DNA from: Bacillota bacterium
GTDB lineage: Bacteria > Bacillota > Sulfobacillia > UBA8153
Reading direction: 5' to 3'
Length of the DNA: 50,615 nucleotides
NCBI GenBank assembly: GCA_007130145.1
Contig: SLSY01000102.1
Span: 1 to 50,615, forward strand
Program-made: the position numbers and the translations under genes
Notes under the pieces: model-generated
Told to the model about the DNA's origin: nothing
What the model saw: the letters and a program-made list of their open reading frames with translations, nothing else
Database searches by the model: none
Shown here: positions 17,256-50,615 of the stretch, one piece after another
Layout of the letters: each line of letters begins with the position of its first letter
Numbering within the stretch: position 1 is the stretch's first letter

Positions 17256-17271
17256 GTATTTCGTGCCCCTC

Positions 17272-17712: not shown

Positions 17713-17747
17713 ACCCTCCCCATAACGGACTGTAGTTTAAAGTAATC

Positions 17748-18113: not shown

Positions 18114-18135
18114 GTCTGTTACCTCCTACTATGCC

Positions 18136-24556: not shown

Positions 24557-24576
24557 GATTCACCATCTCCATCTCA

Positions 24577-35915: not shown

Positions 35916-38096
35916 TTATTTCTCTAGCAATGTCGCGCTTTTGACCTCCATTTCGCTTTCGAGGAGTTCAGCCACCCGCCGTATGAGAGCATCATCCTTC
36001 AAGCGAGCGACCGTATCACTGGAGATATGTAGAAGAAGGCCCACCTCCGAATTGCCGTCAGCTTCCCTTGCCTGTCCCGATAGAGTCACTGGCTGATTGC
36101 GACTCCAGCGCTGCATCCCCTTACGCTCACAAACACTCTGCATCCAGGTTTGTTTCTCTTCACGAGCTTGGGCTATCAAGTGGAAGAATGCTTTGACTAC
36201 GTCTGGATGAAACTGAACGGGGGTGCAGCGTTCCAGTTCCCGCATGACTTCATCGAGAGGAAGAGCCGGTCGGTACACCCGAAAGGAGGTCATACTATCA
36301 AAGGCATCGGCAACAGCCAGAATCGAAGCCCCCAGGGGTATATCTACTCCAGATAACCCCTCAGGGTAACCGTCTCCCTGGTGCCACTCATGATGGCAAC
36401 GCACCAAAGGCGCCAGATGCGCCAAGGCACCACTGTTTTCCAGGATTCGTGCGCCAGCTGCAGGGTGATTCATCATGAGATTGCGCTCAAGAGCATTCAA
36501 GGGGCCCCGTTTGTTGAGCACATCATCGGGAATCCCCACTTTGCCCAGATCGTGGACAAGACCGGCATGTTCAATTCGCTGCACTTGCTCAGGAGTTAAT
36601 CGCATGGCTTGGGCGATCATTTTTGCGTAGTGCGCAACATTCACCGAGTGGCTCATAGTATATGCATCGCGAGCGTCAACCGTGGCCGCCAACACCCAGA
36701 TACTGCTTTCATAGAGGCTTTCGGTTTGCTTGTGCAGCCGTATGCTGTCAAGGGCCGCTGACAGATGCGCCGCAATCGAAGCAAGGACCACCCTGGCTCC
36801 AGCTTGAAATGTCCCCCGCTGATGACTGGCCAGAATCCAGGTTCCCAACCGCCTTCCTTCAACCCACAAGGGAAAGGCCATCAAAGATGCCACCTCATGC
36901 CCCTGGAGAAACCGGGATAGATCCTTCTCTTCATTCTCTACCGCACGTCCTTGCTCCCATAAGAGAGGTTCAACGCTCTCCTCAACAGGTCGCCTCAGAC
37001 GTGACAGCAAACCCTCTCCCAGTCCGGGCGCTCGCAAACTATTCCAACACACCTGCTCTTGGGTATGCTCTGCCATCAATGCCATGGAGGCCAAACGGTA
37101 GCGCCCCGATAAAAGTCCTCCCAGTTCGTGCACCATGGGAGAGAGATCCGTATGTGCTTTTAAGAGGTAGCCCGCCTGCACCAGGAGTTCAAGTTCCTGC
37201 TGGGTCTCGTGCAACGTGGTTACGTCCACGTACGTTTGCAAAACGCCGCTCTCCTCCCCTTGGCGCCTGTGAACAGGAGCCGTGAATACCCGGTAACACC
37301 CCTTGGGGCTCTTCATTTCTAATTCGGTACGCACTCCCAAGCGGTTGCCCACGCCCAGCTGGGCAATTTGCTCGCCAAACGCCCTGGGATCACGAAACCT
37401 GTCCTGCAAGGGAAGGAGGCTGGCTTGATATGGTCGGCCCACGAGCTGAGCCTTCTCCAAACCAAAGAGAGCGGCAAAACGTTCATTGACGTTGCGAATC
37501 AATCCGCTCTCATCCACCATGATGAGAGCACTGTCTGTGGCATCGAGCACCGCACTGAGAGTGCGATCTCTATCCTCTGCTGTGCATTCCAGATAAGACA
37601 ATTCCATGAGCAACGCCAAGAGTGCCGCCGACAGTTCGAACGCCGGTAGCATCTGAGGACTAAACGCTTCTGCCGTAGCACTTTGCAGATCCAAGACACC
37701 CAGAACACGTTTACCCCTCAGAAGAGGGAAACACCACTCGGTGCGCGTGTGGTTCTTGTGGATGACTGCATAGTCGGGGGAAAGCCTTGTATCATTGACC
37801 AGTTGCGGACACGCGGTACGAGCACATTTCCCTATGACTCCCTTAGACAAGGGCTGCCGATAGCGATGGGGTGAACGTCCTTGTGCCAATCCTGCCTCCG
37901 CTACCACCGTCATGTGTTCACCGACCGGTTCGATCTGCACAACCGTAACATGATCAGCCTCAAAGCAACGGGACAGCTCCCCTAGAGCCGCCTCGATGGA
38001 AGGCGTGGAATGCGGGTCTCGACACAATAAGCTGACAAGAGCAGCGCCCACACGCTGGCAGTAGTAATCCTCTCCGATGACATGGACTGACAACAA
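35916..38096 (-). CDS. GAF-PAS-GAF sensor protein with an HD-GYP domain (putative c-di-GMP phosphodiesterase)
   Basis: 726 aa. HD-GYP signatures: HDLGKVGIPDDVL and CHHEWHQGDGYPEGL. A PAS-like segment (SALIMVDESGLIRNVNERFAALFG) is flanked by GAF-like segments. A tail of about 100 aa is unassigned. Confidence 0.85.
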   Translation of the reverse strand: MLSVHVIGEDYYCQRVGAALVSLLCRDPHSTPSIEAALGELSRCFEADHVTVVQIEPVGEHMTVVAEAGLAQGRSPHRYRQPLSKGVIGKCARTACPQLVNDTRLSPDYAVIHKNHTRTEWCFPLLRGKRVLGVLDLQSATAEAFSPQMLPAFELSAALLALLMELSYLECTAEDRDRTLSAVLDATDSALIMVDESGLIRNVNERFAALFGLEKAQLVGRPYQASLLPLQDRFRDPRAFGEQIAQLGVGNRLGVRTELEMKSPKGCYRVFTAPVHRRQGEESGVLQTYVDVTTLHETQQELELLVQAGYLLKAHTDLSPMVHELGGLLSGRYRLASMALMAEHTQEQVCWNSLRAPGLGEGLLSRLRRPVEESVEPLLWEQGRAVENEEKDLSRFLQGHEVASLMAFPLWVEGRRLGTWILASHQRGTFQAGARVVLASIAAHLSAALDSIRLHKQTESLYESSIWVLAATVDARDAYTMSHSVNVAHYAKMIAQAMRLTPEQVQRIEHAGLVHDLGKVGIPDDVLNKRGPLNALERNLMMNHPAAGARILENSGALAHLAPLVRCHHEWHQGDGYPEGLSGVDIPLGASILAVADAFDSMTSFRVYRPALPLDEVMRELERCTPVQFHPDVVKAFFHLIAQAREEKQTWMQSVCERKGMQRWSRNQPVTLSGQAREADGNSEVGLLLHISSDTVARLKDDALIRRVAELLESEMEVKSATLLEK

Positions 38097-38143
38097 ACAT
38101 GCCCCCCCACTTGCTAGACGGGGTAGCCCTTCGACAGGGTGCG

Positions 38144-39343
38144 CTAAATATCTTTTCTTTCTGAATAATTCGTCTCTTTTCCCTCTTCTCCTGCTTTGAT
38201 CACGGCAAATCTTGTCATAGAAGGACCCACGAGCTCATAGATGAAGACGGCCCCGAGTATGACACTGCTGATCATCTCGGCAAACTGGGGCAAAGCGTCT
38301 TGGGCCATGACCATCATGCCCACGGCAACGCTAGCCTGCGGCATCAGCGTCAGTCCCAGATACTTACGGGTCATGGGGTTCATGGGCACGCACCACGCAC
38401 CGAGGTAAACCGCCAGCACCTTGCCCACCGCTCGCAAGACCATGTAGAGAATTCCTATTTGACCAGCTCTTAGCAAGGAAGACGGCTCGAGTGAGGAACC
38501 GGCCACCACAAAGAAGGCAATGAGAAGCAAAGGTGCCAGTGCTTGCATCTGACGGTCCAGTGCACGAGCAAACCGGGAACGATTGCCGGTAACGATGCCG
38601 CAAACCAGGGCAACCAAGAGTGGAGAAAGGCCCCACCTTGCACTGAGACCCGCGAGGAGTGTCAGCAAACCCACCATGGCAACCACCAGTTCACTTTCGT
38701 TTCCGAGGCGCCCAGCTACCAGAACAAAGGACCATCCCCCCGCCACCGCCAACAGCAAAGACCCTCCGACATGTTCAACTCCGCAGGTTATACCCGTAAG
38801 CCACTGCCACTGCCATTGCCCTTGCGTCAGGGCCTGCGCCAGGGGAAGGGCAAGACTAAAAGCCACAATGACAATCATGTCATCCATGGCCACCACAACC
38901 AAATGGGTGCGAGTGAGAGGGCCATCGCTTTGCATTTCGTGCATGACAGCTACCGTCAGGGCCGGAGCTGTAGCGGCGCTGATAACAGACAGCACAAGTG
39001 CCAGGGTAAGAGGCGTTCCGACCACCACGAGGGCGGCAAAAACTAAGGTAAACGGCACCAGAGCCTGCAAGACGGCGAGATACAGAACCGATGATCCCAG
39101 TTGTTGTAGATAGCTGACATCTAGTTCACGCCCGATCCCAAGGGCTATGAAGACCAGGGCGAGTTGGTTGAAGGGCGAGAATTTCTCAAGGACTCCTTCA
39201 TCAACAAAGCCCAACGCCGCTGGCCCAATGATCATTCCTACGAGCAAATAGCCTGTTACCGCTGGTAAACGCAAGTGAGTGCTCAGACGGGCCGCAAGCA
39301 GACCTGCGACCAACACCGCGCCAAGACCCACTAGAACCTCCAT
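38144..39343 (-). CDS. Cation:proton antiporter, CPA2/Kef-like membrane domain only (no RCK/KTN domain)
   Basis: About 399 aa from the ATG at 39343 (MEVLVGLGAVLVAGLLAARL...VTGYLLVGMIIGP). It is polytopic with a Na_H_exchanger-like pattern. The ATG overlaps the upstream TGA in the sequence TGATG. Confidence 0.85.
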   Translation of the reverse strand: MEVLVGLGAVLVAGLLAARLSTHLRLPAVTGYLLVGMIIGPAALGFVDEGVLEKFSPFNQLALVFIALGIGRELDVSYLQQLGSSVLYLAVLQALVPFTLVFAALVVVGTPLTLALVLSVISAATAPALTVAVMHEMQSDGPLTRTHLVVVAMDDMIVIVAFSLALPLAQALTQGQWQWQWLTGITCGVEHVGGSLLLAVAGGWSFVLVAGRLGNESELVVAMVGLLTLLAGLSARWGLSPLLVALVCGIVTGNRSRFARALDRQMQALAPLLLIAFFVVAGSSLEPSSLLRAGQIGILYMVLRAVGKVLAVYLGAWCVPMNPMTRKYLGLTLMPQASVAVGMMVMAQDALPQFAEMISSVILGAVFIYELVGPSMTRFAVIKAGEEGKETNYSERKDI

Positions 39344-39696
39344 CAACCGCCCTCTCCCGCACAAGGCAAACCTTTCACCAAACCGAGAGGAAATGCAAAG
39401 AGAAAACCCTGAGCAGCCTCACCTTGTGTAAGAATTGCTTCTGCCGCGTCAACTGCTTCGCTAAGCCGTGCATCGCCCTCCACAATGGCCAACACAGTGT
39501 CGGTGTGAACCATTTGCTGACCGGGCAACCAACGCAGCTGTGATAATGAAAGCCAGGGCTTACCCGCGAAAGCCGCCTCATAGCTAGCGCTGTGCATTAC
39601 GGTGAGGTTATCAACGCCCCGCTTCCTCAATTCCTCTAGCAGCTCGGCAAGTCGGTGGGTTTCGTTCAACACCATGAACAGTGCCCACATCGGCAT
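39343..39696 (-). CDS. Hypothetical small protein, possibly a PII-like (ferredoxin-fold) regulatory protein
   Basis: 117 aa, soluble. The secondary-structure pattern looks like beta-alpha-beta, loop, beta-alpha-beta (ALFMVLNETHRLAELLEELRKRGVDNLTVMHS ... TVLAIVEGDARLSEAVDAAEAIL). The stop is translationally coupled to the CPA2 start. Family assignment is by eye only. Confidence 0.5.
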   Translation of the reverse strand: MPMWALFMVLNETHRLAELLEELRKRGVDNLTVMHSASYEAAFAGKPWLSLSQLRWLPGQQMVHTDTVLAIVEGDARLSEAVDAAEAILTQGEAAQGFLFAFPLGLVKGLPCAGEGG

Positions 39697-39845
39697 TCCC
39701 TCCCATCCACAGTGTCTCTCATCAAACCTGAGAGAATGCGCCAGAAGAGAGCAGGGCCCGGAGCTCTAGATACGGACCGGCCGGGAAGGAGAAACTAGCA
39801 TAGAAGTCCAATCCCAATAGGTCACTATGCGCCGGCGGTTGGGGC

Positions 39846-41084
39846 TCATAAAGAGCTGGGCACCCGGGTGAAGACAACGGACCTGGGGGCAGGAAGAGTG
39901 CGGAGGGCGAAAATGATCACGCCGACGGTGGCAACCAGGCCTGCCACCCAAAAAGACATCTGGATGCTGAACAAGTCCATCACCACGCCGCCGAGTATGG
40001 AGCCAAAACCCAAGCCCAGACTCATAGCCGTGCTCGTCGTGCCCATGATCGTCCCCATGCCATACAAACGACCCCGTTCCACAGACAACGCGGTGATGGC
40101 TGGTACGTACACCCCGGTGGAAGAGGCCAAGAGCAGGGCACCGGCCATGAGCTGGGCTGGGGTCACGGCCAAAGGCATAAGGTAGATAGCAAGGACCGCA
40201 AAGCTGAACCCCATCAGACCCAAGCGCCGGCGATCGACACGGTCCGCGAGCACACCGCAAAACAGCTGAATGGACGACTCGCACACCGCCTGCAGCGACA
40301 TGATGAGACCAACAATGTAGGGTGGTAATCCCAAATAGACGGCCACCCAGATCGGTAGCATCGCCTCAAATACCGCCCAGCCTGTGGCGAGTGAGAAGCG
40401 TCCGGCTACGATGCCCTGCACTACTCCATCGCGTATGATCGCTGAGAAGGGGGCCAGCGCCATCTTGCCGTAACTGCTGGTGGTCGCACGCTCGGGCACA
40501 AATGCCATAACCAAAAGGAAGGCCAATGCCCCCAAGACACTCATGATCAAAAAGGGTATCCCCATGCCAAAGCGCGCATATAGAAGGGTTCCAGTGATGG
40601 GTCCCAACACAAATCCCCCGATGAAAGACACGTTGAACACGGACATGAGCGTTCCCTCACGACCAGCCGGTGTAACCAGTCCAGCGTAGGCCCAGGCGGC
40701 TGGCTGTACCACAGCCAGCATGATTCCCTGAATAACGCGCCATACCACGAGGGCAGCGGGAGTAGAAGCACTGTACAGGCCCAGTGCTGCCAAAGCGTAG
40801 CCGCCCAAACCCACCAGCATGAGCACCTTAATGCGATAGAGATCTGCCAGGCGTCCGAATACGACCTGAAAGAGGCCGCGGACCAGAGGACTGGCCCCCA
40901 CAACAAGGCCAATCCAGATGCCACTGGCCCCCAGCGCCTGGGCGTGCACGGCCATAAGAGGCATAATGCCACCCATCCCAAAGGACATGAGCAGCATGGC
41001 CATCAACAACACAACGAAGGCTGACATATCCTGTGTCAGCCGCAGCTTGGGCCATCGCACCTTGCTACACCCCCGCCCGCACAA
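39846..41084 (-). CDS. MFS transporter
   Basis: 412 aa with about 12 TM helices and the MFS loop FGRLADLYRIK. The true start may be the internal ATG at 41027. Confidence 0.8.
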   Translation of the reverse strand: MCGRGCSKVRWPKLRLTQDMSAFVVLLMAMLLMSFGMGGIMPLMAVHAQALGASGIWIGLVVGASPLVRGLFQVVFGRLADLYRIKVLMLVGLGGYALAALGLYSASTPAALVVWRVIQGIMLAVVQPAAWAYAGLVTPAGREGTLMSVFNVSFIGGFVLGPITGTLLYARFGMGIPFLIMSVLGALAFLLVMAFVPERATTSSYGKMALAPFSAIIRDGVVQGIVAGRFSLATGWAVFEAMLPIWVAVYLGLPPYIVGLIMSLQAVCESSIQLFCGVLADRVDRRRLGLMGFSFAVLAIYLMPLAVTPAQLMAGALLLASSTGVYVPAITALSVERGRLYGMGTIMGTTSTAMSLGLGFGSILGGVVMDLFSIQMSFWVAGLVATVGVIIFALRTLPAPRSVVFTRVPSSL

Positions 41085-41566
41085 TAGCTAGTGACATTCG
41101 TGACGAAAATGCATTTCCCTGCTACGGGGCAAAGCAATGACCGGGTCCCTCGAGTAGCGGGATACACCCTGTCGTCTCCGCTTCAGTTACCTGGGGGGCA
41201 TCCCTATTCCCGGCCTGCACCGCGCCGCAAACTCCTAAGACCACAAGCGTGACAAAAGCCGTGAGCCGCGCTCTTCTCCCTGTTGGTACCCAAAAACGAG
41301 ATGATAGTAGCTGCGATCGCGGGGTGGTGCAGCGTGAATGGACAAGGGGCAAGCCCCATCCATGAAAACAGGAGGGGCAGCACAGGGGGCTGCATCAGAG
41401 GGTCTTGCCCCCTTCTTGCACCAAGCGAGGGTTTCAAAGCACTCAGGTAGTGGAGCATGGGTGGTTTACGGTCGGATGGGAGCGATTATCAAGAGGTGAA
41501 GTTCCTGCTATGAACAGGCTAGCTTCTCAGACGGCAATGGCCAGCGCCGAGGAGGAAAAGCACATG

Positions 41567-41599
41567 CCCAAGGTTGGAAGGGATCCGACCAACCTTGGG
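41567..41599. other. Perfect 11-bp inverted repeat in a gene-free region
   Basis: CCCAAGGTTGG (41567-41577), an 11-nt loop, then CCAACCTTGGG (41589-41599). On the minus strand it is followed by CATGTGCTTTTCC. Confidence 0.5.
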
Positions 41600-42000
41600 C
41601 CTTGCGGCCAAGACCAGCCAGATGAGAAAGCGCGGCCTCAGGTCGTGAACGAAGATGATAGCAAGCGTTCTCCCACACTACCATGGCTGCGAGCGGATGT
41701 GTGACACAAAAATAGACATGACCAGTGAATTTCACCACTTGACCACCCGGAGCGGGTCCGGCACGTTTCCCAGATAAGCGCAGTCACACTCAATGAAAGC
41801 TCTGGACCATGGCCGCACTCGCCTCGAGGCAGGTGACAAACATGACCCTGTAGCCCTTTGGAGATCATGCCACGAACACTAGGTGACTACGCCTTGCGCG
41901 ATGAGGACTCTCGGTGCCCCATTCCGGTCCATTGGGAACAGAACTCTTCCCCCCTCTGAGGGCTTGCCCTGACACCTATCCCTCGTTGACGTTCATGAGA

Positions 42001-42034
42001 CAAAAGGAAAAGGCCCAGCCAACCGCCGGGCCTC
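42001..42034 (-). terminator. Intrinsic terminator after metF
   Basis: On the minus strand, AGGCCC...GGGCCT (42011-42016 / 42028-42033) is followed by TTTTCCTTTTG. It lies 18 nt downstream of the metF stop. Confidence 0.65.
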
Positions 42035-42051
42035 CGTCTTACCTACTCCCA

Positions 42052-42999
42052 TCAACCTGAGGTGTCGCCGTCCTCCTTTGCCAGTTGGGGGCGCGGGAAA
42101 AGCCCGGCACGATCTACGAGTTCAGGCACTATATCCTCCCAGGCAATGGCCATAATGTGCACGCCCTTGACACCTTCGATTTCGCGCACCTGCTGTATCA
42201 ATTCAACCGCAATGCGAACGCCCTCTTCCTTCTGCTTCTCCTTGGGCACACCCGCCATGCGCTTGACCAATTCATCAGGGACCGCCATGCCTGGCACCTC
42301 CGCATTGCGCCGTAGTGCCGTGGCGGACTTGACAGGTACGATTCCCGCCATGATGTATGTCTTTTCGTGCAGGCCCATGTCTCGCACCATGTCCATATAA
42401 CGCTTGAAACGCTCCACATCGAAGATGGCCTGCGTTTGGATAAAGTCCGCTCCGGCCGCCACCTTCTTAGCTAGTCGCACCACCCGATAGGCAAAGGGAT
42501 CGCCAAAAGGATTGGCGGCGGCTCCAATGAACATGCGCGGTTCATACTTGCACTTATCACCGCTGACGAACACTTTGCCGTCACGCAACTGTTGAACCGC
42601 CCGAATGAGCTGCACAGAATCCAGATCAAACACGTTCTTTGAGGTGGGATGATTGCCAAAAGACTGGTGATCACCTGTCAAGCAGAGCAGATTACGGACT
42701 CCGAGGCTGTAAGCACCGAGAAGATCCGACTGTAAGGCAATGCGATTCCTATCCCGGCATGTCATCTGAATGACGGGCTCGGCCCCGGCCTTCATCACGT
42801 GCACGGATGCAGCAATGGACGACAAGCGGACGATGGCCGTCTGATTATCGGTTAGGTTCAGTGCATCCGCATAATCCTTAAGTGCCGCAGCATGTCGCGA
42901 TATGCTACGACTCGACGTGCTTTTGGGAGGGCCGATTTCGGCTGTGCATGCGAACTGACCGCTCAAGAACACTCTTTCCAAATTGCTTCCCGATTTCAT
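42052..42999 (-). CDS. metF: Methylenetetrahydrofolate reductase, MetF (MetV-associated type)
   Basis: 315 aa with FACTAEIGPPKS, LNLTDNQTAIVRLS, QMTCRDRNRIALQSDLLGA, and NLLCLTGDH. Confidence 0.92.
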   Translation of the reverse strand: MKSGSNLERVFLSGQFACTAEIGPPKSTSSRSISRHAAALKDYADALNLTDNQTAIVRLSSIAASVHVMKAGAEPVIQMTCRDRNRIALQSDLLGAYSLGVRNLLCLTGDHQSFGNHPTSKNVFDLDSVQLIRAVQQLRDGKVFVSGDKCKYEPRMFIGAAANPFGDPFAYRVVRLAKKVAAGADFIQTQAIFDVERFKRYMDMVRDMGLHEKTYIMAGIVPVKSATALRRNAEVPGMAVPDELVKRMAGVPKEKQKEEGVRIAVELIQQVREIEGVKGVHIMAIAWEDIVPELVDRAGLFPRPQLAKEDGDTSG

Positions 43000-43010
43000 C
43001 TAGCCACCCC

Positions 43011-43667
43011 CTATACCGCCTTTACATCCGAACGCTCCACCCGCCGTGGACCGCCATCACGCGCTGTAGACCAATCTTTGGGTGGCAATGGTTCGGTCAG
43101 CAAATCCAACCGGTTCAAGGCCACGAGACGATCATAGATCAGCTGCCACGCACATTCGACATCATCCCTTATTTCACAGTTGCCTTCCTGTGAGCCACCG
43201 CAGGGGCCGTTGAGCAGACTCTTGGAACAACGGATGATGGGGCAAATGCCTCCGGTCAAATGCAGGATACACTCTCCACAGAAGCCACAGCGCTCTTCCC
43301 AGACGCCCGCTTCGCGGGCGCCGCCGCCGAACTTGGTGTTGAGAGCCGGAAGCACCCATGTATGGGAGTAACGTTCTGCCAAAAACTGCACCCCCACTCC
43401 ACAGCCCATGGAGAGTATGCAGTCGACCCCTTCTAACTCTGCATCCAAATCGACAATAAATTCGGGATCACATTGCCTATTGAGCACCGCTGTCAGCACC
43501 TGCCCAAAGCCCCGTAGCTTGAGCAACGCTGCGAGCGTATTCACTTCTTTCTCGCCTCCGGCTTGACACACAGTAACGCACTCAGAGCAGCCGACCACCA
43601 TGATCTTCTGGCAGTCACCGAGCAAGGGAACAATCTCGTCCAATGGTTTGCGCTCCGCTACGATCAT
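43011..43667 (-). CDS. metV: MetV, methylene-THF reductase-associated Cys-rich (Fe-S/zinc-ribbon) subunit
   Basis: I prefer the ATG at 43667 (MIVAERKPLDEIV...) because the track start at 43790 overlaps the upstream gene. Cys motifs: VGCSECVTVCQAGG, CGFCGECIL, and GGICPIIRCSKSLLNGPCGG. Confidence 0.85.
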   Translation of the reverse strand: MIVAERKPLDEIVPLLGDCQKIMVVGCSECVTVCQAGGEKEVNTLAALLKLRGFGQVLTAVLNRQCDPEFIVDLDAELEGVDCILSMGCGVGVQFLAERYSHTWVLPALNTKFGGGAREAGVWEERCGFCGECILHLTGGICPIIRCSKSLLNGPCGGSQEGNCEIRDDVECAWQLIYDRLVALNRLDLLTEPLPPKDWSTARDGGPRRVERSDVKAV

Positions 43668-43689
43668 CAGGTTCACCTTCCTTGTCGCC

Positions 43690-44535
43690 TCAATACTCCT
43701 GGGGCATTTCCTTGAGCTGTGCATAGGTGAAAACAGGTCCATCCAAACACACATACTGAGAACCAATGTTACAGCGACCACACTTACCAATACCGCATTT
43801 CATGCGCATCTCGAGCGTGGTAACGATTTGCTCTGGCGTAAAGCCAAGTTCCTCTAGGCTTTGTATGACAAACTTAATCATGATGGGCGGGCCACAAGTG
43901 ATGGCCACCGCATTGTTGGGAGAGGGACTGACATCCATCAGGATGGCAGGCACGAAACCCACTCGACCATCCCACTGTTCATCGCCACGATCGACCGTCA
44001 CGTAGAGCGCAAGATCCTCGGCCTCGGCCCATTTCTCCAGTTCCCACTTGAACACCAGATCACCGGGACTGCGAGCACCATATATCATGACAATGGAACC
44101 AAACCGCTGCCGGTTCTTGGGATCAATGCAGTAGTTAAACAGCGAACGCAAGGGCGCCAGCCCAATACCGCCGGCGATGAATTGCAGATCCTTACCCTCT
44201 AAGCTATCCACGGGAAATACGTTGCCATAGGGGCCCCGAATCCCGACCTCCTGCCCAACTTCAGCATGGTGCAATGCCGTGGTAAGTTTTCCAGCCTTCT
44301 TGATGGAAAACTCCAGGTATCCTTCCTGGGTAGGCGAAGAGGTGATGGAAATAGGGGCCTCTCCCACCCCCGGCAAAGAGAGCTCGGCAAACTGACCCGG
44401 CTCATACCGAAAGGACTCCCGGTCTTCGGATTCTGTGAAGACCATGCGAAAGGTCTTGACATCATTGACAGCAGTTTCGGTGATGATCTCCTCTATGCGC
44501 GCGCTCTTGGGAACATAAGGATTGCTCACAGACAT
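43690..44535 (-). CDS. FAD/NAD(P)-binding [2Fe-2S] oxidoreductase (FlxA / sulfhydrogenase gamma / AsrB / PyrK-like)
   Basis: 281 aa with an FNR-like fold (PGQFAELSLPGVGEAPISI, FIAGGIGLAPLRS) and a C-terminal cluster motif CGIGKCGRCNIG. Confidence 0.85.
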   Translation of the reverse strand: MSVSNPYVPKSARIEEIITETAVNDVKTFRMVFTESEDRESFRYEPGQFAELSLPGVGEAPISITSSPTQEGYLEFSIKKAGKLTTALHHAEVGQEVGIRGPYGNVFPVDSLEGKDLQFIAGGIGLAPLRSLFNYCIDPKNRQRFGSIVMIYGARSPGDLVFKWELEKWAEAEDLALYVTVDRGDEQWDGRVGFVPAILMDVSPSPNNAVAITCGPPIMIKFVIQSLEELGFTPEQIVTTLEMRMKCGIGKCGRCNIGSQYVCLDGPVFTYAQLKEMPQEY

Positions 44536-45503
44536 CCCCCTAACTCAGCCAGTACTTGACGAATATCCAGGTTCACCGGGCACAACTCGATGCACCGACC
44601 ACAGCCAACACAAGCATGATCTTCCAAGCGCAAGGGGAAGTAGCAAAACTTATGCATCACCCGCTGTCGCATCCGTTCCTTCCCGGACAAACGGGGATTA
44701 TGACCGGATGTGTGCAACGTGAACAGGGGAAACATGCAGGAGTCCCAGGTGCGCAAGCGCGCCTTATCGGTATCTGTCACATCAAAGCAGTGACACGTTG
44801 GGCAGTAATAGGTACACACTGCACAGCCCAGGCACTTCTCGTGCAAGCGCTCCCACACGGGGGCCTCAAAACTCGCTTCGAGTTTCTTGGCCAAACCCTC
44901 CAACTCTACCTCTTCGGCCACAGCCCGGGCTTGATCCTTCTCGGCACGCGCTTGGGCCTGTTGCTCTTTTGTTGCCTCTGGCCACGCTTCTTGCTCCAAA
45001 TACTCTTCCCCGGCTGTGCTAGCCGCTTCGGCCACCCATCCCTCGTCCACCGGCGTAAGCAGCACGTCGAGCCCCACAGTGTCAAAGGGGCCTCCTCCTA
45101 CCGTAGAGCAAAAGCAGGTCATCTGTGGTTGTGGACAAGCCATCCCAATGAAAAGGGCGCCTTGGCGTCTCTCCTGATACGGCCCATCCACCGGTGGCTG
45201 TTCCACAAACACCCGGTCCAACAGATGCACGGCACGAGCATCACACGGGCGCACTCCAAACACCGCCAACGGGCGAGATGTCTTCTCTTGACCGTCGTCA
45301 AACTCCATGAGAACTTCCGTGCGTGGTAGAAAGAGTTCTTTCACCGTTGCGTCAGGATTATGATCCAGCATTGATTCTTGGCCTGCTTGCCACGGTATAT
45401 AACCGGTCTTGCCCCTCAGCTTTCCGGGCCAGTGGAGGTGATAGGACCGGGCCAGGCGAGCGAGCACCTCGTCAAGGGCCGACCTTGCTAGAAATCTGGC
45501 CAT
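44526..45503 (-). CDS. 4Fe-4S dicluster protein (FlxB / sulfhydrogenase beta / AsrA-like)
   Basis: 325 aa with VFGVRPCDARAV, CLGCAVCTYYCPTCHCFD, and CVGCGRCIELCPVN. Confidence 0.8.
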   Translation of the reverse strand: MARFLARSALDEVLARLARSYHLHWPGKLRGKTGYIPWQAGQESMLDHNPDATVKELFLPRTEVLMEFDDGQEKTSRPLAVFGVRPCDARAVHLLDRVFVEQPPVDGPYQERRQGALFIGMACPQPQMTCFCSTVGGGPFDTVGLDVLLTPVDEGWVAEAASTAGEEYLEQEAWPEATKEQQAQARAEKDQARAVAEEVELEGLAKKLEASFEAPVWERLHEKCLGCAVCTYYCPTCHCFDVTDTDKARLRTWDSCMFPLFTLHTSGHNPRLSGKERMRQRVMHKFCYFPLRLEDHACVGCGRCIELCPVNLDIRQVLAELGGCL

Positions 45504-45515
45504 TGCCTTCCCTCC

Positions 45516-46400
45516 TTACTTGATGAAGTCATCAGAATCGTCCTTGGAAAAACTCCCCAGCAAACTGGGGGCATCAGGATCCTGGCCCGACAGGTAGCCA
45601 AAGCGACGGACCGCTTCGGCTTCCATACGCCGGTGCAGCGCCAGGAGATTGATATTCTGCGGACAGGCACGAGCACATGCCCCGCAGTCAGTGCAGCGTC
45701 CGGCCAGATGCAGTGTCCTCACCAGGTGAAAGAGCATGGCTTCGGGTGGTTCATGGACGGGACTCACCCAGTCAGGATGGCTACGATCGGTGAAACACTC
45801 GGGGCAATAGCAGGCCGGACAGGCTTGCCGGCACGCATAGCAGCGAATGCATTTCTCCATTTCGGCGCTAAACCACCGGTAGCGTTCTTCACTATCCTCA
45901 TCTATAGGGGAAGAGGAGACCTGAGCGTCTGCCTCTTCGACCGCAACCTTCTTCTCCCCCAGCCAGCAGTGGAACAGATCGACAGCGGGGAGGCGGCAGT
46001 GTTCACACGCCACCGCCAAAGCCTCTTTCCACTCACCATCATCCAGGGACATTCCCTCTTCCCATCTATCACGGTCAATGACCCCGGGACATTCCACCCC
46101 AATGGCCAACACCTTATCGGGATCTACCTGGCGCTCCCTGATCAGTTCTACCAGAGCTCTGGCGTCACAGGCCTTCACGACAACGCCCACCCGCTCCTTC
46201 TTGAAGCGGGGCAAATAGACGGCCAGATTGGGGTGACAAGTCGGGTCAAACACCAATTCTTGCGCGTCTTCACTGGAGCGGGCAAAGACTACGGTGCTCT
46301 GGGCAGGCAGGCTCCCACGGGCATAGCCAATGAAAACATCGACTTCGCCCTCCCGAAGAAGCCGGGCTGCCTCCTTGCGTAGTTGTTCCTGCACCATCAC
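45516..46400 (-). CDS. 4Fe-4S dicluster protein, paralogue of the downstream gene (FlxC-like)
   Basis: 294 aa with VVVKACDARALV, CIRCYACRQACPACYCPECF, and CTDCGACARACPQN. The start overlaps the mvhD stop (GTGATG). Confidence 0.75.
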   Translation of the reverse strand: MMVQEQLRKEAARLLREGEVDVFIGYARGSLPAQSTVVFARSSEDAQELVFDPTCHPNLAVYLPRFKKERVGVVVKACDARALVELIRERQVDPDKVLAIGVECPGVIDRDRWEEGMSLDDGEWKEALAVACEHCRLPAVDLFHCWLGEKKVAVEEADAQVSSSPIDEDSEERYRWFSAEMEKCIRCYACRQACPACYCPECFTDRSHPDWVSPVHEPPEAMLFHLVRTLHLAGRCTDCGACARACPQNINLLALHRRMEAEAVRRFGYLSGQDPDAPSLLGSFSKDDSDDFIK

Positions 46401-46843
46401 GCTCGCCTCGCTTTCTGGACCAGGCGCTGATTCGGGCCCAAAGCCTGAACCGTTTCGGTCACTTCACGCATGACATCGGAAAATTTCTGGCCTTCGGCCG
46501 CAGACACCCAGGAAAACTGCAGGCGGCCCTTCTCAATGCCCACGAAGTCAAGTAGATTAGCAAGCAGGGCAAACCGGCGTCGGGCCACGTAATTGCCCGC
46601 CAGGTAGTGACAATCCCCCGGATGGCATCCTGACACCAAGACCCCATCTGCCCCCTGGGTTAGGGCTTTGAGAATGTAGAAGGGATTCACCGCACCGGTG
46701 CACGGTACTCGAATGACCCGGACATTGGCCGGGTACTGCAAGCGCGATATCCCTGCCAAATCCGCTCCCGCGTAAGAACACCAGTGGCAAAGAAAGGCCA
46801 CTATCTTCGGTTCCCATTCCGTTTTGACCGCTGGTGCCTTCAT
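46397..46843 (-). CDS. mvhD: MvhD/FlxD-type hydrogenase iron-sulfur (delta) subunit
   Basis: 148 aa with IVAFLCHWCSYAGADLAG, VPCTGAVNP, and SGCHPGDCHY. It overlaps the upstream hdrA-like stop by ATGA. Confidence 0.9.
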   Translation of the reverse strand: MKAPAVKTEWEPKIVAFLCHWCSYAGADLAGISRLQYPANVRVIRVPCTGAVNPFYILKALTQGADGVLVSGCHPGDCHYLAGNYVARRRFALLANLLDFVGIEKGRLQFSWVSAAEGQKFSDVMREVTETVQALGPNQRLVQKARRA

Positions 46844-49800
46844 GTCAGTGCCACCACCTCCGCCAGTATCTGTTCATCTGTGAACCCTTTGAGAGTGATA
46901 GCCCCGCACCGGCAGGTGGCCGCACAGGAACCACACCCTTTGCAGACTGCTGCTTCGACTTGAGCCTCGCCCTTTTCGGCATTGACCTTGATGGCCTGGA
47001 ACTGACAAACTTCCTCACAGGCTCCACAGGCACTGCACAGTCTGGGATCGACTTGGGCCACCGGGCCGCCTGCCTCTATCTCATCCTTGCTGATGATGGT
47101 TACAGCCCTGCTCACGGCGGCCTGGGCCTGGGCGATGCTCTCGGCAATCGTCTTAGGACCATGGGCCAACCCCGCCACAAACACCCCGTCGGTGGAGAAA
47201 TCCACCGGACGAAGTTTGGCGTGAGCCTCCAGGAAGAATCCTTCCTGATTCAGCGGGATCTTGAGCAGTTGCGCTATGTGACGGCCATCCCCAGGAGCCT
47301 TGACCCCCGTGGCCAAAACGACAGCATCGGCGTCAATTACCACGTTGGCACCCAGAACCCCATCGTATACGACGACCTCTAGCTTCTCAGGGCCACTCTC
47401 CAGCTGCGGTTTATGATCTTCGTCATAACGCAAGAAGGTTACCCCCGCCTCCCGGGCGCGCCGATAGGCGTTCTCCTTGAGACCATACGTGCGAATATCC
47501 CGGTAGAGGATGAATACCTCGCTGGTGGGATCGGCTTCCTTGATAGACAGGGCGTTCTTGACCATCTGCTGGCAGCATACCCGGCTGCAGTAGAGCTGAC
47601 CTTCCTCGCGCGAGCCAGCGCATCCGATCATGACCACCGTCTGGCCTTTCGCTTCCCATCCCTGTAACTGACGTTCAAACTGACTGCTGGTGAAAACACG
47701 TCCATCCTGGCCCAAGAGATACTCTGTGGTGCTGGCTTCCTCACCGCCAATAGCGACGACGATTGCACCGTGTTCCAGATCTTTTGTGGTATCGTCCTGG
47801 ACAACGCGAGTGGTGAAATTGCCCACATATCCATCGATGCTCTCAATGTTCGCCCGAAGATACACATCAATGAGAGGATGGTCCAAGACCTGTTTCTCCA
47901 AGTCAGAAAGCAGCGATCGGAGATCCTCTCCCTCCAAGGTGCTCCCCAGCTGGCGCAACCGGCCACCCAGCGAATCACCCTTCTCTACCAAGTGACAGGG
48001 GAATCCTTGCTGGGCAAAACCCAACGCGGCGGTGAGGCCAGCAACTCCGCCTCCGATGACCAGAGCCTTCTGTGTAACCGGCACCTGGCTGCGATACAAC
48101 GGTTCCAAGAGGCATGCCTTGGCCACAGCCATGCGCACCAAGTCCTTGGCTTTATCGGTGGCGGGTCCGGGCTCGTGCATGTGCACCCAGGAGCACTGAT
48201 CACGGATATTGGCCATCTCAAACAGGTAAGGGTTCAGTCCCCCTTCCCGTATGGTTTGCTGAAACAGGGCCTCGTGTGTTCTTGGGGAACAGGAGGCTAC
48301 CACAATACGATTGAGATCGTGCTCTTCGATGAGTTCTTTCATGCGATCCTGTGTATCCTGCGAACAAGTGTAAAGGTTATCCTCCACATGCACCACATAG
48401 GGCAACGTGCGAGCATACTCAGCAACGTCGGGCACTCGCACCACCCCGCCAATATTGATGCCGCACTGACAGACGAAGACGCCGACCCGTGGGCGCTGGT
48501 GGAGCACTGTGCGCTCAGGCGGGTATTCCTTGTGGCGAATCATGGACCAACGTGCCGGACTGAGAACCTGAGCTGCGGCAGCAGCAGCAGCGCTCGATTC
48601 TACCACCGTTTCCGGGATATCCTTGGGCGACTTCGCCGCTCCGGCAGCGAACACTCCCTGCCAGGATGTGGATACCGGGTTAGATGATGCCGAGACAAGA
48701 TATCCGCTCTCGTCCAAGAGCATCCCCGTCTTATTGGCCAACGCGACCAGATCCTTTTGGGGCGCAAGTCCAACTGACAATACGACCAGATCGAATTCTT
48801 CATGATCGACCCCATCGTGTTCATCAGCATAACTGAGCACCAGAGAACCCTCCTGAGAGCCCTCCTTCACGCCAAAGACCTTGCCGCGCTTGAACACCAC
48901 ACCTTGCTCATTTTTGGCTCTGAGGTAATACTGCTCAAAGTCCTTGCCATAGGCGCGTATATCCATATAGAAGATGGTGATATCGAGCGGCTCGGTGGCA
49001 TGTTCCTTGGCGATCACCGCTTCCTTAATGGCATACATACAGCATACCGAGGAGCAGTAGCCCGCCCCGTTCTTCACATCACGAGACCCCACACACTGAA
49101 TGAAGGCAATGCGGCGCGGAGTCTGGCCATCAGAAGGCCGGGCCACATGGCCTCCAAAGGGACCCGATGCCGAAAGAATGCGCTCGAATTCCACACTGGT
49201 CACCACGTTGGGAAAGCGGTCATACCCATAGGCATTGAGTTGCTCCACTGGTGTCGTGTCAAAACCCGGCGTGAGAATGACCGATCCCACCTCAACCTCG
49301 CGTTCCACTTCGAACATATCATGGCGGATGGCCTCAGCCTGGCATGCTCTCTCACACTCTAAGCACTCAGCACAGATCCCGCAATCCAGGCAGCGCATCG
49401 CTTCAGCCTGAGCCGCCTTCTCATCCAAGCCCTGTTCGACCTCAAAGAAGCCTTGAACCCTCTCCTTGGCATCCAGTTCCGGCATGGGCGGGCGAGCTTG
49501 GCGCTCCCGATCTCGGGGTACTTCACCCACCACCAGAGGTAGATCTTCGTCCTCCCCTGGTTTGACCAACTCTTCACCGTTAAGATAACGCTCAATGGAG
49601 CGAGCCACGCGGCGCCCAGCCGCCACGGCCCAGATCACGGTGTCAGGCCCGGTCACGGCATCACCGCCAGAAAATATGCCCGCGCGGGGCGTTGCCAGCG
49701 TCACTTCATCCGACACCAGGCGTCCCCACCGGTCCACCAGATCACTGTGGGTTTCGCCCAAAAAGCCCGTGTCGGGGTTTTGACCGATGGCCACAATCAG

Positions 49801-50615
49801 GTTATCGGCCTGCAAACGATACTGATCACCCTCGATGGGAACAGGCCGCCGGCGTCCCGAAGCATCGGGACTCCCCAGCTCCATGCGCTGGCAGACAACC
49901 GCCTGAAGGCGGCCGTCCTCCACGAACAGTTCGCTCGGTGCCGACAAATACTCGATCTTAACACCTTCAGCCAATGCGGCTTCGATTTCGTGCTCAGCCG
50001 CGGGCATCTCTTTTCGGGTGCGCCGGTAGAGCACGGTAACCTCGCGGCCTCCCAATCTGAGCGCGCTCCGCGCCGCATCGATGGCCACGTTGCCGCCCCC
50101 TACCACGACCACTTTCTCGCCCAGCTGGGGCGGTTGGTACAGGTTCGCGTCGCGTAAGAAATCAACCCCGCTCAGAATCCCTTGGGCATCTTCACCAGCC
50201 AGGGACAATTTCATATCCTGGTGAGCCCCCAAAGCCAGGAACACACTGCGATAACCCTCCGTCTCCAGGTCTTCAAAGGTAAAGTCCCGGCCCAATGCAG
50301 TATTGGTACGGATCTCCACGCCCAGATTCTTGATGGCCTCGATCTCGGTGTTCAGCACGTCAGGAGGCAACCGATAATCGGGGATTCCCACTGCCAGCAT
50401 GCCGCCGGCCACCGGCAATGCTTCAAAGATCGTTACAGGGAAACCGGCCAGAGCCAGGAAATGAGCAGCGGTGAGACCCGCCGGTCCCGAACCGATAATG
50501 GCCACTTTCTCCTCCCGCGTCTGTTCCGGTTTGCTCAACGAACCGCTTTCAGGGTTGGCGTTCTCATAATCGGCAACAAAGCGCTTGAGAGCGCATATGG
50601 CCAATGGATCATCGA
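46840..50615 (-). CDS. hdrA: Giant HdrA-family flavoprotein: GltD/NfnB-like NAD(P)H module, then a partial HdrA module, then a complete HdrA module (5' end off-window)
   Basis: More than 1254 aa. The frame is open to the window edge (..DDPLAICALKRFVADYE), so the track start (a TTG at 50604) is not the true start. See the findings for the domain map. Confidence 0.9.
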   Translation of the reverse strand, partial: DDPLAICALKRFVADYENANPESGSLSKPEQTREEKVAIIGSGPAGLTAAHFLALAGFPVTIFEALPVAGGMLAVGIPDYRLPPDVLNTEIEAIKNLGVEIRTNTALGRDFTFEDLETEGYRSVFLALGAHQDMKLSLAGEDAQGILSGVDFLRDANLYQPPQLGEKVVVVGGGNVAIDAARSALRLGGREVTVLYRRTRKEMPAAEHEIEAALAEGVKIEYLSAPSELFVEDGRLQAVVCQRMELGSPDASGRRRPVPIEGDQYRLQADNLIVAIGQNPDTGFLGETHSDLVDRWGRLVSDEVTLATPRAGIFSGGDAVTGPDTVIWAVAAGRRVARSIERYLNGEELVKPGEDEDLPLVVGEVPRDRERQARPPMPELDAKERVQGFFEVEQGLDEKAAQAEAMRCLDCGICAECLECERACQAEAIRHDMFEVEREVEVGSVILTPGFDTTPVEQLNAYGYDRFPNVVTSVEFERILSASGPFGGHVARPSDGQTPRRIAFIQCVGSRDVKNGAGYCSSVCCMYAIKEAVIAKEHATEPLDITIFYMDIRAYGKDFEQYYLRAKNEQGVVFKRGKVFGVKEGSQEGSLVLSYADEHDGVDHEEFDLVVLSVGLAPQKDLVALANKTGMLLDESGYLVSASSNPVSTSWQGVFAAGAAKSPKDIPETVVESSAAAAAAAQVLSPARWSMIRHKEYPPERTVLHQRPRVGVFVCQCGINIGGVVRVPDVAEYARTLPYVVHVEDNLYTCSQDTQDRMKELIEEHDLNRIVVASCSPRTHEALFQQTIREGGLNPYLFEMANIRDQCSWVHMHEPGPATDKAKDLVRMAVAKACLLEPLYRSQVPVTQKALVIGGGVAGLTAALGFAQQGFPCHLVEKGDSLGGRLRQLGSTLEGEDLRSLLSDLEKQVLDHPLIDVYLRANIESIDGYVGNFTTRVVQDDTTKDLEHGAIVVAIGGEEASTTEYLLGQDGRVFTSSQFERQLQGWEAKGQTVVMIGCAGSREEGQLYCSRVCCQQMVKNALSIKEADPTSEVFILYRDIRTYGLKENAYRRAREAGVTFLRYDEDHKPQLESGPEKLEVVVYDGVLGANVVIDADAVVLATGVKAPGDGRHIAQLLKIPLNQEGFFLEAHAKLRPVDFSTDGVFVAGLAHGPKTIAESIAQAQAAVSRAVTIISKDEIEAGGPVAQVDPRLCSACGACEEVCQFQAIKVNAEKGEAQVEAAVCKGCGSCAATCRCGAITLKGFTDEQILAEVVALT

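Follow-up and report, generated by a model that had tools for sequence, protein, structure and literature searches.

The hdrL gene at the edge of the window

The stretch of DNA analysed here, called the window below, comprises the 50,615 nucleotides (nt) of contig SLSY01000102.1 from a Bacillota bacterium. At its far end, a large open reading frame (ORF) on the minus strand encodes an HdrA-family protein with a NfnB/GltD-type module. This ORF is very probably the 3' 85 % of a gene for a Moorella-type HdrA, also known as HdrL or type III HdrA, and the gene is called hdrL in the following. Between positions 46843 and 50613 the frame holds 1257 sense codons with no internal stop in the translation. 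The stop codon occupies 46840-46842. No start closes the frame before the end of the window, beyond which the 5' 660 nt of the gene lie. A mechanical ORF listing gives 46840-50604 for the same frame. A preliminary description of the window had reported an HdrA-family ORF of more than 1254 amino acids (aa). The ORF is real, the motifs quoted for it were all found in their places, and the domain map drawn for its visible part agrees with Pfam and with sequence alignments to the Protein Data Bank (PDB). The agreement of motifs and domains in the visible ORF is far beyond chance. Its features are given below; aa numbers are those of the visible protein, equal to the full-length residue number minus 220.

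46840-50615, minus strand: gene assigned to hdrL / Moorella-type hdrA, 3' 85 %; uninterrupted frame, 1257 of 1477 codons plus the stop codon in the window
49579-50613, minus strand: NfnB/GltD-type cassette; end of the Fer4_20 region (aa 1-~30) and Rossmann pair for flavin adenine dinucleotide (FAD) and NAD(P)H (aa 36-345)
50476-50508, minus strand: motif KVAIIGSGPAG, FAD part of the NfnB/GltD module
50077-50112, minus strand: motif VVVVGGGNVAID, quoted in the preliminary description
49381-49578, minus strand: acidic/proline linker (aa 346-373) and permuted N-terminal Fer4_20 segment (aa 374-411, RPPMPELDAKERVQGFFEVEQGLDEKAAQAEAMRCLDC), from the 5jca_L alignment and Pfam
49342-49395, minus strand: Cys cluster, RCLDC and CAECLECERAC
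48538-49374, minus strand: HdrA copy 1, C-terminal part; aligns with 5odc_A 286-566 and 8rvu_a 295-569 (E ~4e-65 to 4e-68)
49258-49287, minus strand: motif GSVILTPGFD, HdrA copy 1
49024-49095, minus strand: motifs CVGSRD and YCSSVCCMYAIK, HdrA copy 1
48604-48627, minus strand: motif PKDIPETV, HdrA copy 1
48094-48537, minus strand: linker (aa 693-705) and N-terminal Fe-S cluster domain of HdrA copy 2 (CQCG, ASCSPRTHE, IRDQCSWVH); aligns with 5odc_A 2-~135 and 8rvu_a 10-~140
48460-48489, minus strand: motif RVGVFVCQCG, HdrA copy 2
47077-48093, minus strand: thioredoxin reductase (TrxR)-like FAD domain of HdrA copy 2; aligns with 8rvu_a 10-243 and 384-651
48037-48066, minus strand: motif ALVIGGGVAG, HdrA copy 2
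47557-47592, minus strand: motif YCSRVCC, HdrA copy 2
46843-47076, minus strand: C-terminal 2x[4Fe-4S] ferredoxin of HdrA copy 2 (CSACGACEEVC, CKGCGSCAATC); Pfam Fer4 and Fer4_7 at aa 1187-1240; aligns with 8rvu_a 586-651
46912-47037, minus strand: the two C-terminal CxxCxxCxxxC motifs, HdrA copy 2

In the PDB sequence search, window aa 1-421 align with the NfnL/GltD-like domain of solved NfnA/StnC chains and with NfnL, aa ~414-692 with residues 286-566 of HdrA 5odc_A (E 4e-65), and aa 706-939 and 988-1255 with HdrA residues 2-236 and 384-651. In Pfam, aa 36-333 match Pyr_redox_2, aa 850-885 an FAD beta-alpha-beta element and aa 1187-1240 Fer4. No internal repeat was detected in the window by self-BLAST.

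The cassette carries the Rossmann motifs GSGPAG, GGGNVAID, LYRRTRKEMPA and GGDAVTGP, and shares 40-46 % identity with NfnL 5jca_L and with the NfnL-like domains, which bind NADP(H), of 9bov_A, 9n5u_A and 8oh5_C. The C-terminal part of copy 1 contains the second Cys motif of the inserted ferredoxin (CAECLECERAC) and the NADPH-like subdomain, which bears CVGSRD...YCSSVCC as its HA4-type cluster motif; by alignment to 5odc_A, the equivalents of E356 and K409 lie in VEFERIL and CCMYAIK, and the FAD domain closes with PKDIPETV. In the TrxR-like domain of copy 2, the corresponding motifs are GGGVAG, GCAGSRE...YCSRVCC (HA4) and, for the E/K equivalents, QFERQL and CCQQMVK. When aligned to 8rvu_a, copy 2 has neither Cys197, with LGSTLEGEDL in the place of LDKTFPTxDC, nor the inserted ferredoxin, as ~50 residues replace HdrA residues 244-383. 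In Mvh-Hdr, it is the C-terminal ferredoxin domain of HdrA that docks MvhD.

The missing half of HdrA copy 1

The preliminary description had regarded the C-terminal part of copy 1 as an orphan half HdrA. The rest of the gene is found on ENA contig ERZ27301263:k141_2962778 (L001), a near-identical twin of the window. L001 is 99.75 % identical to window 36399-50615 (14.2 kb), from which it differs by 34 scattered single-nucleotide polymorphisms (SNPs) and one 2-bp indel in the intergenic stretch behind metF (~41973). The complete hdrL occupies L001:5571-10004 and encodes 1477 aa, and the window protein equals its residues 221-1477 with one substitution (L905W, window numbering). Ten of the 11 SNPs inside hdrL are synonymous, and the MvhD protein encoded directly downstream (46400-46843) is present on L001 with identical sequence. 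These differences are consistent with a closely related strain and purifying selection.

L001 supplies 220 additional N-terminal residues, including CTGCGDCEEVCPV. Residues 13-166 of the full-length protein align without gaps to residues 145-298 of HdrA 5odc_A (~60 % identity, E 3e-55) and comprise the missing N-terminal half: the FAD-binding TrxR-like part with GxGxxG, the Cys197 motif TNDCAMCIL and the first inserted-ferredoxin motif CTGCGDCEEVCP. The alignment with HdrA breaks at about residue 290-298 of 5odc_A and resumes at about 286-293, at CAECLECERAC, across the NfnB-like module of ~470 aa. The two halves abut in HdrA numbering around the module, which is therefore nested inside the inserted ferredoxin domain of copy 1. 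That half of an HdrA seems orphaned is an artefact: the window ends inside the cassette, and the missing 5' end, read from L001, holds the other half of HdrA and not an orphan arrangement. Thus, the remark that the middle HdrA segment lacks its own GxGxxG is right inside the window and wrong for the full gene; similarly, an Fe-S region of the GltD module was correctly placed outside the window as regards ~60 residues, and what lies there is mainly the HdrA half.

In the full-length protein, copy 1 spans residues 1-~160 and 634-~912, the cassette ~161-631, and copy 2 926-1477. In copy 1, neither the N-terminal cluster domain nor the C-terminal ferredoxin is present; Cys197, both inserted-ferredoxin motifs, HA4 and E697/K750 are kept. 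The E/K pair of copy 2 is E1200/K1239. The two HdrA copies are complementary, with Cys197 and the inserted ferredoxin in copy 1 and the N-terminal cluster domain and C-terminal ferredoxin in copy 2. The protein is a fused pseudo-heterodimer of two HdrA units. Motif counts predict three FAD sites plus a single NAD(P)H site, and suggest nine [4Fe-4S] sites. The three flavin sites proposed in the preliminary description are borne out as two HdrA TrxR domains, both with E356/K409 equivalents, and one FAD/NAD(P)H module of the NfnB type.

The TrxR-like FAD domain with GxGxxG is present in both copies, in copy 2 within the window and in copy 1 on L001 and in 108 of 110 homologues. Both copies also have the HA4-type CxGSR...C..CC motif and the E356/K409 pair (criterion of PMC9430772). 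The NCBIfam cut-offs for HdrA equivalogs were missed, with 574.6 vs 1400 bits for NF041778 and 796.5 vs 1100 for NF040770. By these comparisons the protein is HdrA-like in fold and is not an equivalog of the coenzyme M-coenzyme B heterodisulfide (CoM-S-S-CoB) reductase, whether methanogen HdrA or HdrA2.

A permuted NfnB cassette

The body of the cassette aligns with residues 50-473 of NfnL 5jca_L, and the segment after the Rossmann pair, RPPMPELDAKERVQGFFEVEQGLDEKAAQAEAMRCLDC, with residues 7-52 of the same chain. The Pfam family Fer4_20 is matched in two pieces, located as follows.

49381-49494, minus strand: trailing Fer4_20 piece, up to RCLxC
L001:6051-6230, off-window: leading Fer4_20 piece

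The leading piece matches positions 29-111 of Fer4_20 (73.6 bits) and the trailing piece positions 2-37 (17.4 bits); when artificially rejoined, they match positions 2-111 in one stretch with 97.9 bits. On these alignments, the cassette is a circular permutant of NfnB, in which the first ~35 residues of Fer4_20 follow the Rossmann pair, so that one [4Fe-4S] cluster would have Cys ligands from both ends of the insertion. The StnC/NfnA chains 8oh5_C, 9bov_A and 9n5u_A contain this cassette too, with the same boundaries (residues ~101-575 there) and the same permutation. The term permutation is not used for StnC/NfnA in PMC10482914 or PMC12018979, and no paper joining "circular permutation" with NfnB, GltD or HdrA was found in open-access text; since only such text was covered, this is weak evidence that the permutation is unreported.

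All parts of NfnB/GltD, namely a two-cluster Fer4_20 and the FAD and NADPH Rossmann domains, are present, with Fer4_20 in permuted form. The corresponding NCBIfam cut-offs were missed (e.g., TIGR01316 with 321 vs 472 bits), and no gltB or nfnA equivalog was found in the locus. The stretch LYRRTRKEMPA is the same in NADP(H)-bound NfnL 5jca_L except for its last two residues (MTA there). In StnC/NfnA, the cassette binds NADP(H), and its FAD feeds a single cluster chain and is non-bifurcating (PMC10482914, PMC12018979). The cassette of HdrL probably prefers NADP(H) as well. A preference for NADH has been argued from GxGxxG (PMC12054007); it was rejected as the best guess on account of the LYRRTRKEMPA stretch and of the NADP(H) binding of the closest solved relatives.

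Homologues, structure model and distribution

Homologues P0001 (68 % identity, 1483 aa) and P0003 (64 %, 1479 aa) have the same N-terminus as the protein of L001. The 120 best database matches have lengths of 1418-1697 aa and a query coverage of 87-100 %, and the diagnostic motifs of copy 1, the cassette and copy 2 each occur in 106-110 of 110 homologues of 1400-1530 aa. The half that is missing from the window (GxGxxG, Cys197 motif and first ferredoxin motif) lies upstream of the GltD module in at least 108 of these 110. An archaeal homologue, P0101, has 1650 aa and is 49 % identical.

An AlphaFold2 model was obtained for residues 1-928 (copy 1 and cassette) of P0001 from an alignment of 61 sequences, with a mean predicted local distance difference test (pLDDT) score of 87.9 and a predicted template modelling (TM) score, pTM, of 0.84. 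In Foldseek comparisons, solved HdrA chains match the model across ~900 alignment columns, with TM 0.92 normalised to the 428-residue 8rwn_A and a root-mean-square deviation (rmsd) of 3.1 A to 5odh_A. As the HdrA chains span ~900 columns, both halves of copy 1 lie on one HdrA core, with the cassette as a gap. A replacement of the FAD-binding half by the GltD module, as considered in the preliminary description, is therefore not seen in this homologue model. The modelled cassette superimposes on Caldicellulosiruptor NfnA 9bov_A with an rmsd of 2.4 A over 478 alignment columns and on Pyrococcus furiosus NfnL with TM 0.81.

A scan of one genome per GTDB species gave at least 598 related stretches, of which the best 80 loci were used; M. 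thermoacetica, Desulfobacterium autotrophicum HRM2 and Syntrophobacter fumaroxidans are not among these 80. They cover essentially the whole 928-aa query of copy 1 and cassette at 47-56 % identity. They belong to Desulfobacterota, Syntrophales, Smithella, Bacillota (Candidatus Formimonas warabiya, Desulfotruncus arcticus), Acidobacteriota, Dehalococcoidia, Atribacteria, Aminicenantes, Armatimonadota, SAR324, Spirochaetes, Nitrospinaceae, and Pirellulales. The architecture is thus spread over more than 100 full-length homologues, at least 80 species genomes and more than 10 phyla.

Gene neighbourhood

The genes that follow hdrL in the window, and the set that precedes it on the twin contig, are listed below.

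46397-46843, minus strand: mvhD (FlpD family, 148 aa); Pfam FlpD, E 6e-55; its start overlaps the hdrL stop codon
45516-46400, minus strand: FlxC-like Fe-S protein (294 aa); Pfam Fer4 motifs and a weak FrhB_FdhB_C match
44526-45503, minus strand: FlxB-like / sulfhydrogenase-beta (AsrA-like) Fe-S protein (325 aa); Pfam Fer4_22, E 1e-29
43690-44535, minus strand: FlxA-like NAD(P)H:FAD [2Fe-2S] protein (281 aa; HydG/AsrB/PyrK superfamily); Pfam FAD_binding_6, NAD_binding_1 and DHODB_Fe-S_bind
43011-43667, minus strand: metV (218 aa, per the gene call of the twin contig); Pfam DUF5981 "methylene-THF reductase C terminal", E 4e-36
42052-42999, minus strand: metF, methylene-tetrahydrofolate (methylene-THF) reductase (315 aa); Pfam MTHFR, E 1e-44
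L001:2382-5571, same strand as hdrL: second HdrA-type set, directly upstream of hdrL; same arrangement in locus L002

The gene order in the window is hdrL-mvhD-flxC-flxB-flxA-like-metV-metF. For the FlxB-like protein, the NCBIfam matches to ShyB, HydB and AsrA are all under the cut-off; the FlxA-like protein scores 269 bits as HydG/AsrB type (PRK08345) vs 70 bits as NfnA type. The mechanical ORF for metV (43011-43790, 259 aa, TTG start) runs ~100 nt into the end of the flxA-like gene, and the start giving 218 aa is more likely.

Upstream of hdrL, L001 and L002 contain acs genes (CdhD/acsD-like and pterin-binding AcsE-like), that is, a Wood-Ljungdahl operon. The second HdrA-type set includes a minimal HdrA core of 346 aa with the HA4 motif and a 419-aa HdrA-like protein that has a C-terminal 2x[4Fe-4S] domain and no HA4 cysteines; a second MvhD (137 aa) and a 159-aa HdrC-like 2x[4Fe-4S] protein precede hdrL. 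Together with the two copies in hdrL, this pair gives the operon four HdrA-type TrxR modules and two MvhDs. No CCG-domain HdrB gene was found among the called genes of L001 (20.4 kb, 19 genes) and L002 (24.5 kb), and no dsr gene in the 20-kb L001 locus.

The context of hdrL was surveyed by tblastn, with a filter of 50 % of query length, in 82 loci (the best 80, L001 and L002); the columns for HdrA copy 2, which was uninformative, and for the 346-aa and 419-aa queries, which mostly matched hdrL, were disregarded. MvhD genes follow hdrL in 68 of the 82 loci. Genes for MetV/MetF are near hdrL in 36-39, usually as hdrL-mvhD-metV-metF, and flxCBA-like genes come after mvhD in ~20, in the order mvhD-flxC-flxB-flxA. 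Two context types can be distinguished, hdrL-mvhD-metVF (~30 loci, mostly Desulfobacterota) and hdrL-mvhD-flxCBA-like (~20), with a few loci that have both (L001, L002, L030, L056, L066, L076 and L080). In the operon studied here, metV and metF share the hdrL cluster inside the acs operon, as in methylene-THF reductases of the MetVF type. In domain content and gene order, the Flx-like genes fit a possible FlxABCD-Hdr system, of which HdrBC is absent.

Downstream of metF, window 35916-41084 holds genes for a major facilitator superfamily (MFS) transporter, a Na+/H+ exchanger and a 726-aa GAF-PAS-HD (HD_5) signalling protein. Further energy-metabolism genes are found elsewhere in the window (16137-19692, 20934-26031 and 30087-31694), where a Na+-translocating decarboxylase beta subunit (OAD_beta), a methylmalonyl-CoA-decarboxylase-like carboxyltransferase and four Proton_antipo_M proteins (Mrp/Nuo-L/M/N-like), three of them consecutive, are encoded.

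Proposed function and alternatives

In canonical Mvh-Hdr, electrons leave the bifurcating FAD via HA4 towards HdrBC; the other exit runs via the cluster of the N-terminal domain and Cys197 and the inserted ferredoxin to free ferredoxin (PMC9012536). The window-type protein has exactly one of each asymmetric HdrA element, and the domain facing ferredoxin is occupied by the cassette. Taken as a whole, it is highly likely that the protein is a Moorella-type HdrA, which would form the electron-bifurcating or electron-confurcating core of a MetVF-type methylene-THF reductase. The association of HdrL with MetVF function is likely on its own account; the specific electron wiring outlined here is tentative.

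In the proposed mechanism, HdrL would be the flavin-based bifurcating or confurcating core of a MetVF complex encoded in the Wood-Ljungdahl operon. The cassette would serve as the NADP(H) port, and electrons would pass between NADP(H) and an HdrA FAD via the two cassette clusters, the two inserted-ferredoxin clusters and the interface cluster. MvhD and the FlxCBA-like proteins may provide a second port, of the NADH type, at copy 2's C-terminal ferredoxin. The HA4-type cluster or clusters would lead, probably through the HdrC-like protein, to MetV/MetF. An HdrA FAD could couple the exergonic reduction of methylene-THF (E0' -200 mV) to an endergonic step in which ferredoxin or NADP+ is reduced. 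The overall chemistry is most likely the NAD(P)H-driven reduction of methylene-THF together with that of a lower-potential acceptor (ferredoxin or NADP+), or the reverse; ferredoxin has been proposed as the acceptor for the Moorella enzyme (PMC5861303).

In a more speculative and rather unlikely version, the HdrB-less variant hdrC-like-hdrL-mvhD-flxCBA-metVF could encode a ferredoxin-independent bifurcating enzyme in which each of the three canonical HdrA ports is re-plumbed, with NADP+ as the low-potential acceptor at the permuted cassette in the place of ferredoxin. NADH would enter through FlxABC-MvhD, and methylene-THF would be the high-potential acceptor via HA4, the HdrC-like protein and MetVF, giving 2 NADH + NADP+ + CH2-THF -> 2 NAD+ + NADPH + CH3-THF. 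If this were true, the second acceptor of Moorella-type methylene-THF reductases would be identified.

Several points weigh against the assignment to a Moorella-type MetVF complex. The Moorella complex has an hdrB, whereas in the window-type locus none was found among the 19 genes of the 20 kb, and hdrL is preceded by just a small HdrC-like gene. Also unlike Moorella, mvhD and metV are separated by three FlxCBA-like genes, and a further HdrA-like pair (346 and 419 aa) is encoded upstream along with an MvhD of its own. As the locus differs in these respects, the composition and partners of the complex may differ too. The motif count gives nine [4Fe-4S] clusters vs the eight predicted in the Moorella paper (PMC9430772), and orthology to Moth_1194 rests on the published description and the matching residue numbering. 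The 5' 660 nt were taken from the 99.75 %-identical contig L001 and lie outside the window. Moreover, the Arg that contacts the flavin N5 in NfnB is conserved in bifurcating and non-bifurcating relatives, so that sequence is not diagnostic of bifurcation in the cassette.

Among the alternatives, the one that survives best, although it is improbable, is that the cassette FAD is a second bifurcating flavin as in NfnAB, with the FlxA-like protein in the role of NfnA; two or three bifurcation sites would then have their low-potential branches head to head. The cassette shares ~41-43 % identity with bifurcating NfnL/NfnB and retains the arginine of GIPxYRLP, the FlxA-like protein belongs to the FAD_binding_6/NAD_binding_1/[2Fe-2S] superfamily of NfnA, E356/K409 are kept in both HdrA copies, and two bifurcation sites were raised by Chadwick et al. 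for HdrA-NfnB fusions (PMC9012536). However, the closest solved relatives (Bfu-type StnC/NfnA, 46 % identity), which have the same permuted and inserted topology, are NADPH entry modules found experimentally to be non-bifurcating, and the FlxA-like protein scores far better as HydG/AsrB than as NfnA and is paired with FlxB/C.

A role as an HdrL-type NAD(P)H-linked reductase of a disulfide or a DsrC-type thiol carrier, with MetVF as a mere neighbour, has a still smaller chance. HdrL was first proposed to pass electrons from NADH to sulfite reduction or DsrC (PMC2702500, PMC5947623), hdrL-mvhD-flxCBA occurs without metVF nearby in ~20 of the 82 loci, and FlxABCD-HdrABC is reported to be tied to DsrC in Desulfovibrio. 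Yet the 20-kb locus offers neither an HdrB/CCG-domain gene, the site of disulfide reduction, nor a dsr gene; hdrL is placed between the acs genes and metVF in both L001 and L002; and the Moorella homologue co-purifies with MetFV (PMC5861303).

A true orphan C-terminal half, with GltD substituting for the FAD-binding half, is very improbable and already counts as refuted. In its favour, the window shows no GxGxxG in the middle segment and has the GltD module immediately before it. However, the missing half is upstream of that module in L001 and the homologues, both halves rejoin in one HdrA core in the model, and the cassette is already a complete two-Rossmann flavoprotein. The chance that the ORF is an assembly chimera or a frameshift fusion of separate gltD and hdrA genes, for which its unusual length alone could speak, is negligible, as a continuous ORF of ~1480 aa is found in an independent ENA contig, in a 68 %-identical metagenome-assembled genome at NCBI, in more than 100 clusters (NCBI, JGI, ENA, Logan) and in at least 80 species genomes, synonymous SNPs prevail 10:1 in the comparison with the twin contig, and a protein of such size, 162.8 kDa, has been purified from Moorella (PMC9430772).

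Significance

The feature is real and its architecture is not odd: the protein is an ordinary member of a described and widespread family. No new kind of system is discovered here, and the architecture itself is of small importance, its oddity having come from the window edge. Two aspects, which a search of open-access literature did not turn up, may be new, namely the permuted NfnB cassette shared with StnC/NfnA and the recurrent HdrB-less operon variant with Flx-like genes and metVF.

The step catalysed by methylene-THF reductase sets the energy conserved by acetogens, syntrophic acetate oxidisers and complete-oxidising sulfate reducers, and the second, low-potential acceptor of the HdrA-linked enzymes has been sought since 2014. 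The NADP(H) cassette sits exactly at the place where canonical HdrA binds ferredoxin; this position, and the division of HdrL loci into MetVF, Flx and combined types, may guide the choice of constructs and hypotheses. A form called rare in archaea is common in bacteria, which may help those who work on the methylene-THF reductase.

Comparison with known systems

The MetFV-HdrCBA-MvhD methylene-THF reductase of Moorella thermoacetica was reportedly described by Mock et al. 2014. In the purified form, MetFV-HdrABC-MvhD uses NADH to reduce benzyl viologen, and reduced viologen to reduce methylene-THF (PMC5861303); a physical complex with these activities is known from Moorella only. Its HdrA has 1487 aa and 162.8 kDa (Kremp et al. 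2022, PMC9430772). An extra ferredoxin domain and an extra TrxR-like domain "interrupted by" GltD are followed by an HdrA without inserted ferredoxin; eight [4Fe-4S], three FAD and one NAD(P)H site are predicted, and E696/K750 and E1204/K1246 are conserved (PMC9430772). The protein studied here, with 1477 aa and E697/K750 and E1200/K1239, has the same GltD-interrupted N-terminal unit and the same C-terminal HdrA without inserted ferredoxin. Both hdrA genes precede mvhD, are linked to metVF and sit after acsE in a Wood-Ljungdahl cluster. The odd architecture claimed in the preliminary description is thus the one published for M. thermoacetica HdrA (PMC9430772); a match to a described HdrL family member was the finding which that description had itself named as speaking against its claim. 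Its assignment to HdrL-type HdrA-GltD fusions was sound.

The name HdrL has been used in sulfate reducers since 2009 for a "heterodisulfide reductase/glutamate synthase fusion" whose gene is always located before mvhD (PMC2702500, PMC5947623). The HdrL of D. autotrophicum and S. fumaroxidans resembles the present protein as a large soluble fusion of HdrA and glutamate synthase with an NAD(P)H site, followed by mvhD, and close full-length homologues (50-56 % identity) are found in many genomes of Desulfobacterota and Syntrophobacterales. The published descriptions are at the Pfam level and leave the nesting unresolved, and the likeness to the HRM2 and Sfum proteins was judged by description. 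Some HdrLs carry selenocysteine, unlike the window protein, and their proposed partners are Dsr/DsrC or HdrABC and not MetVF.

Type III HdrA, including the class A9-TRX-C with an added TrxR domain, is known from archaea (PMC12054007), and fused HdrAs with complementary Cys197 and N-terminal domain, as well as an NfnB insertion in the inserted ferredoxin domain, have been described (PMC9012536). As in type III HdrA (A9, A9-TRX-C) and HdrA9-11 of ANME-1 (anaerobic methanotrophic archaea), an NfnB/GltD domain of ~470-500 aa interrupts the inserted ferredoxin (PMC12054007, PMC9012536). The complementarity of the two copies is that of fused or tandem HdrAs acting as their own heterodimer (Chadwick et al., PMC9012536); the fused HdrA3/4 of ANME has the reverse order of units, with the N-terminal-domain unit first. 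The archaeal type III form was reported as rare (nine sequences), whereas the bacterial form is widespread, with the at least 598 related stretches coming from bacterial and archaeal species genomes.

Beside HdrA, the locus encodes MvhD (FlxD), a pair of Fe-S proteins and an FAD/NAD(P)H/[2Fe-2S] protein of the sulfhydrogenase beta/gamma type, a set that resembles FlxABCD-HdrABC as reported for Desulfovibrio (Ramos et al. 2015). Unlike that system, the present locus has no HdrBC, its HdrA is a giant protein with three flavins, and MetVF follows; the Flx labels used here come from domain content and gene order.

The cassette itself is most like that of Bfu-type NfnA/StnC (9bov, 9n5u, 8oh5): it has the same permuted form at 40-46 % identity and 2.4 A rmsd, binds NADP(H) and FAD in those proteins, and there, too, interrupts a host domain between Fe-S motifs. 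The host of StnC/NfnA is a NuoG/Fdh-like subunit of a HydBC-type bifurcating complex, whereas in HdrL the host is HdrA.

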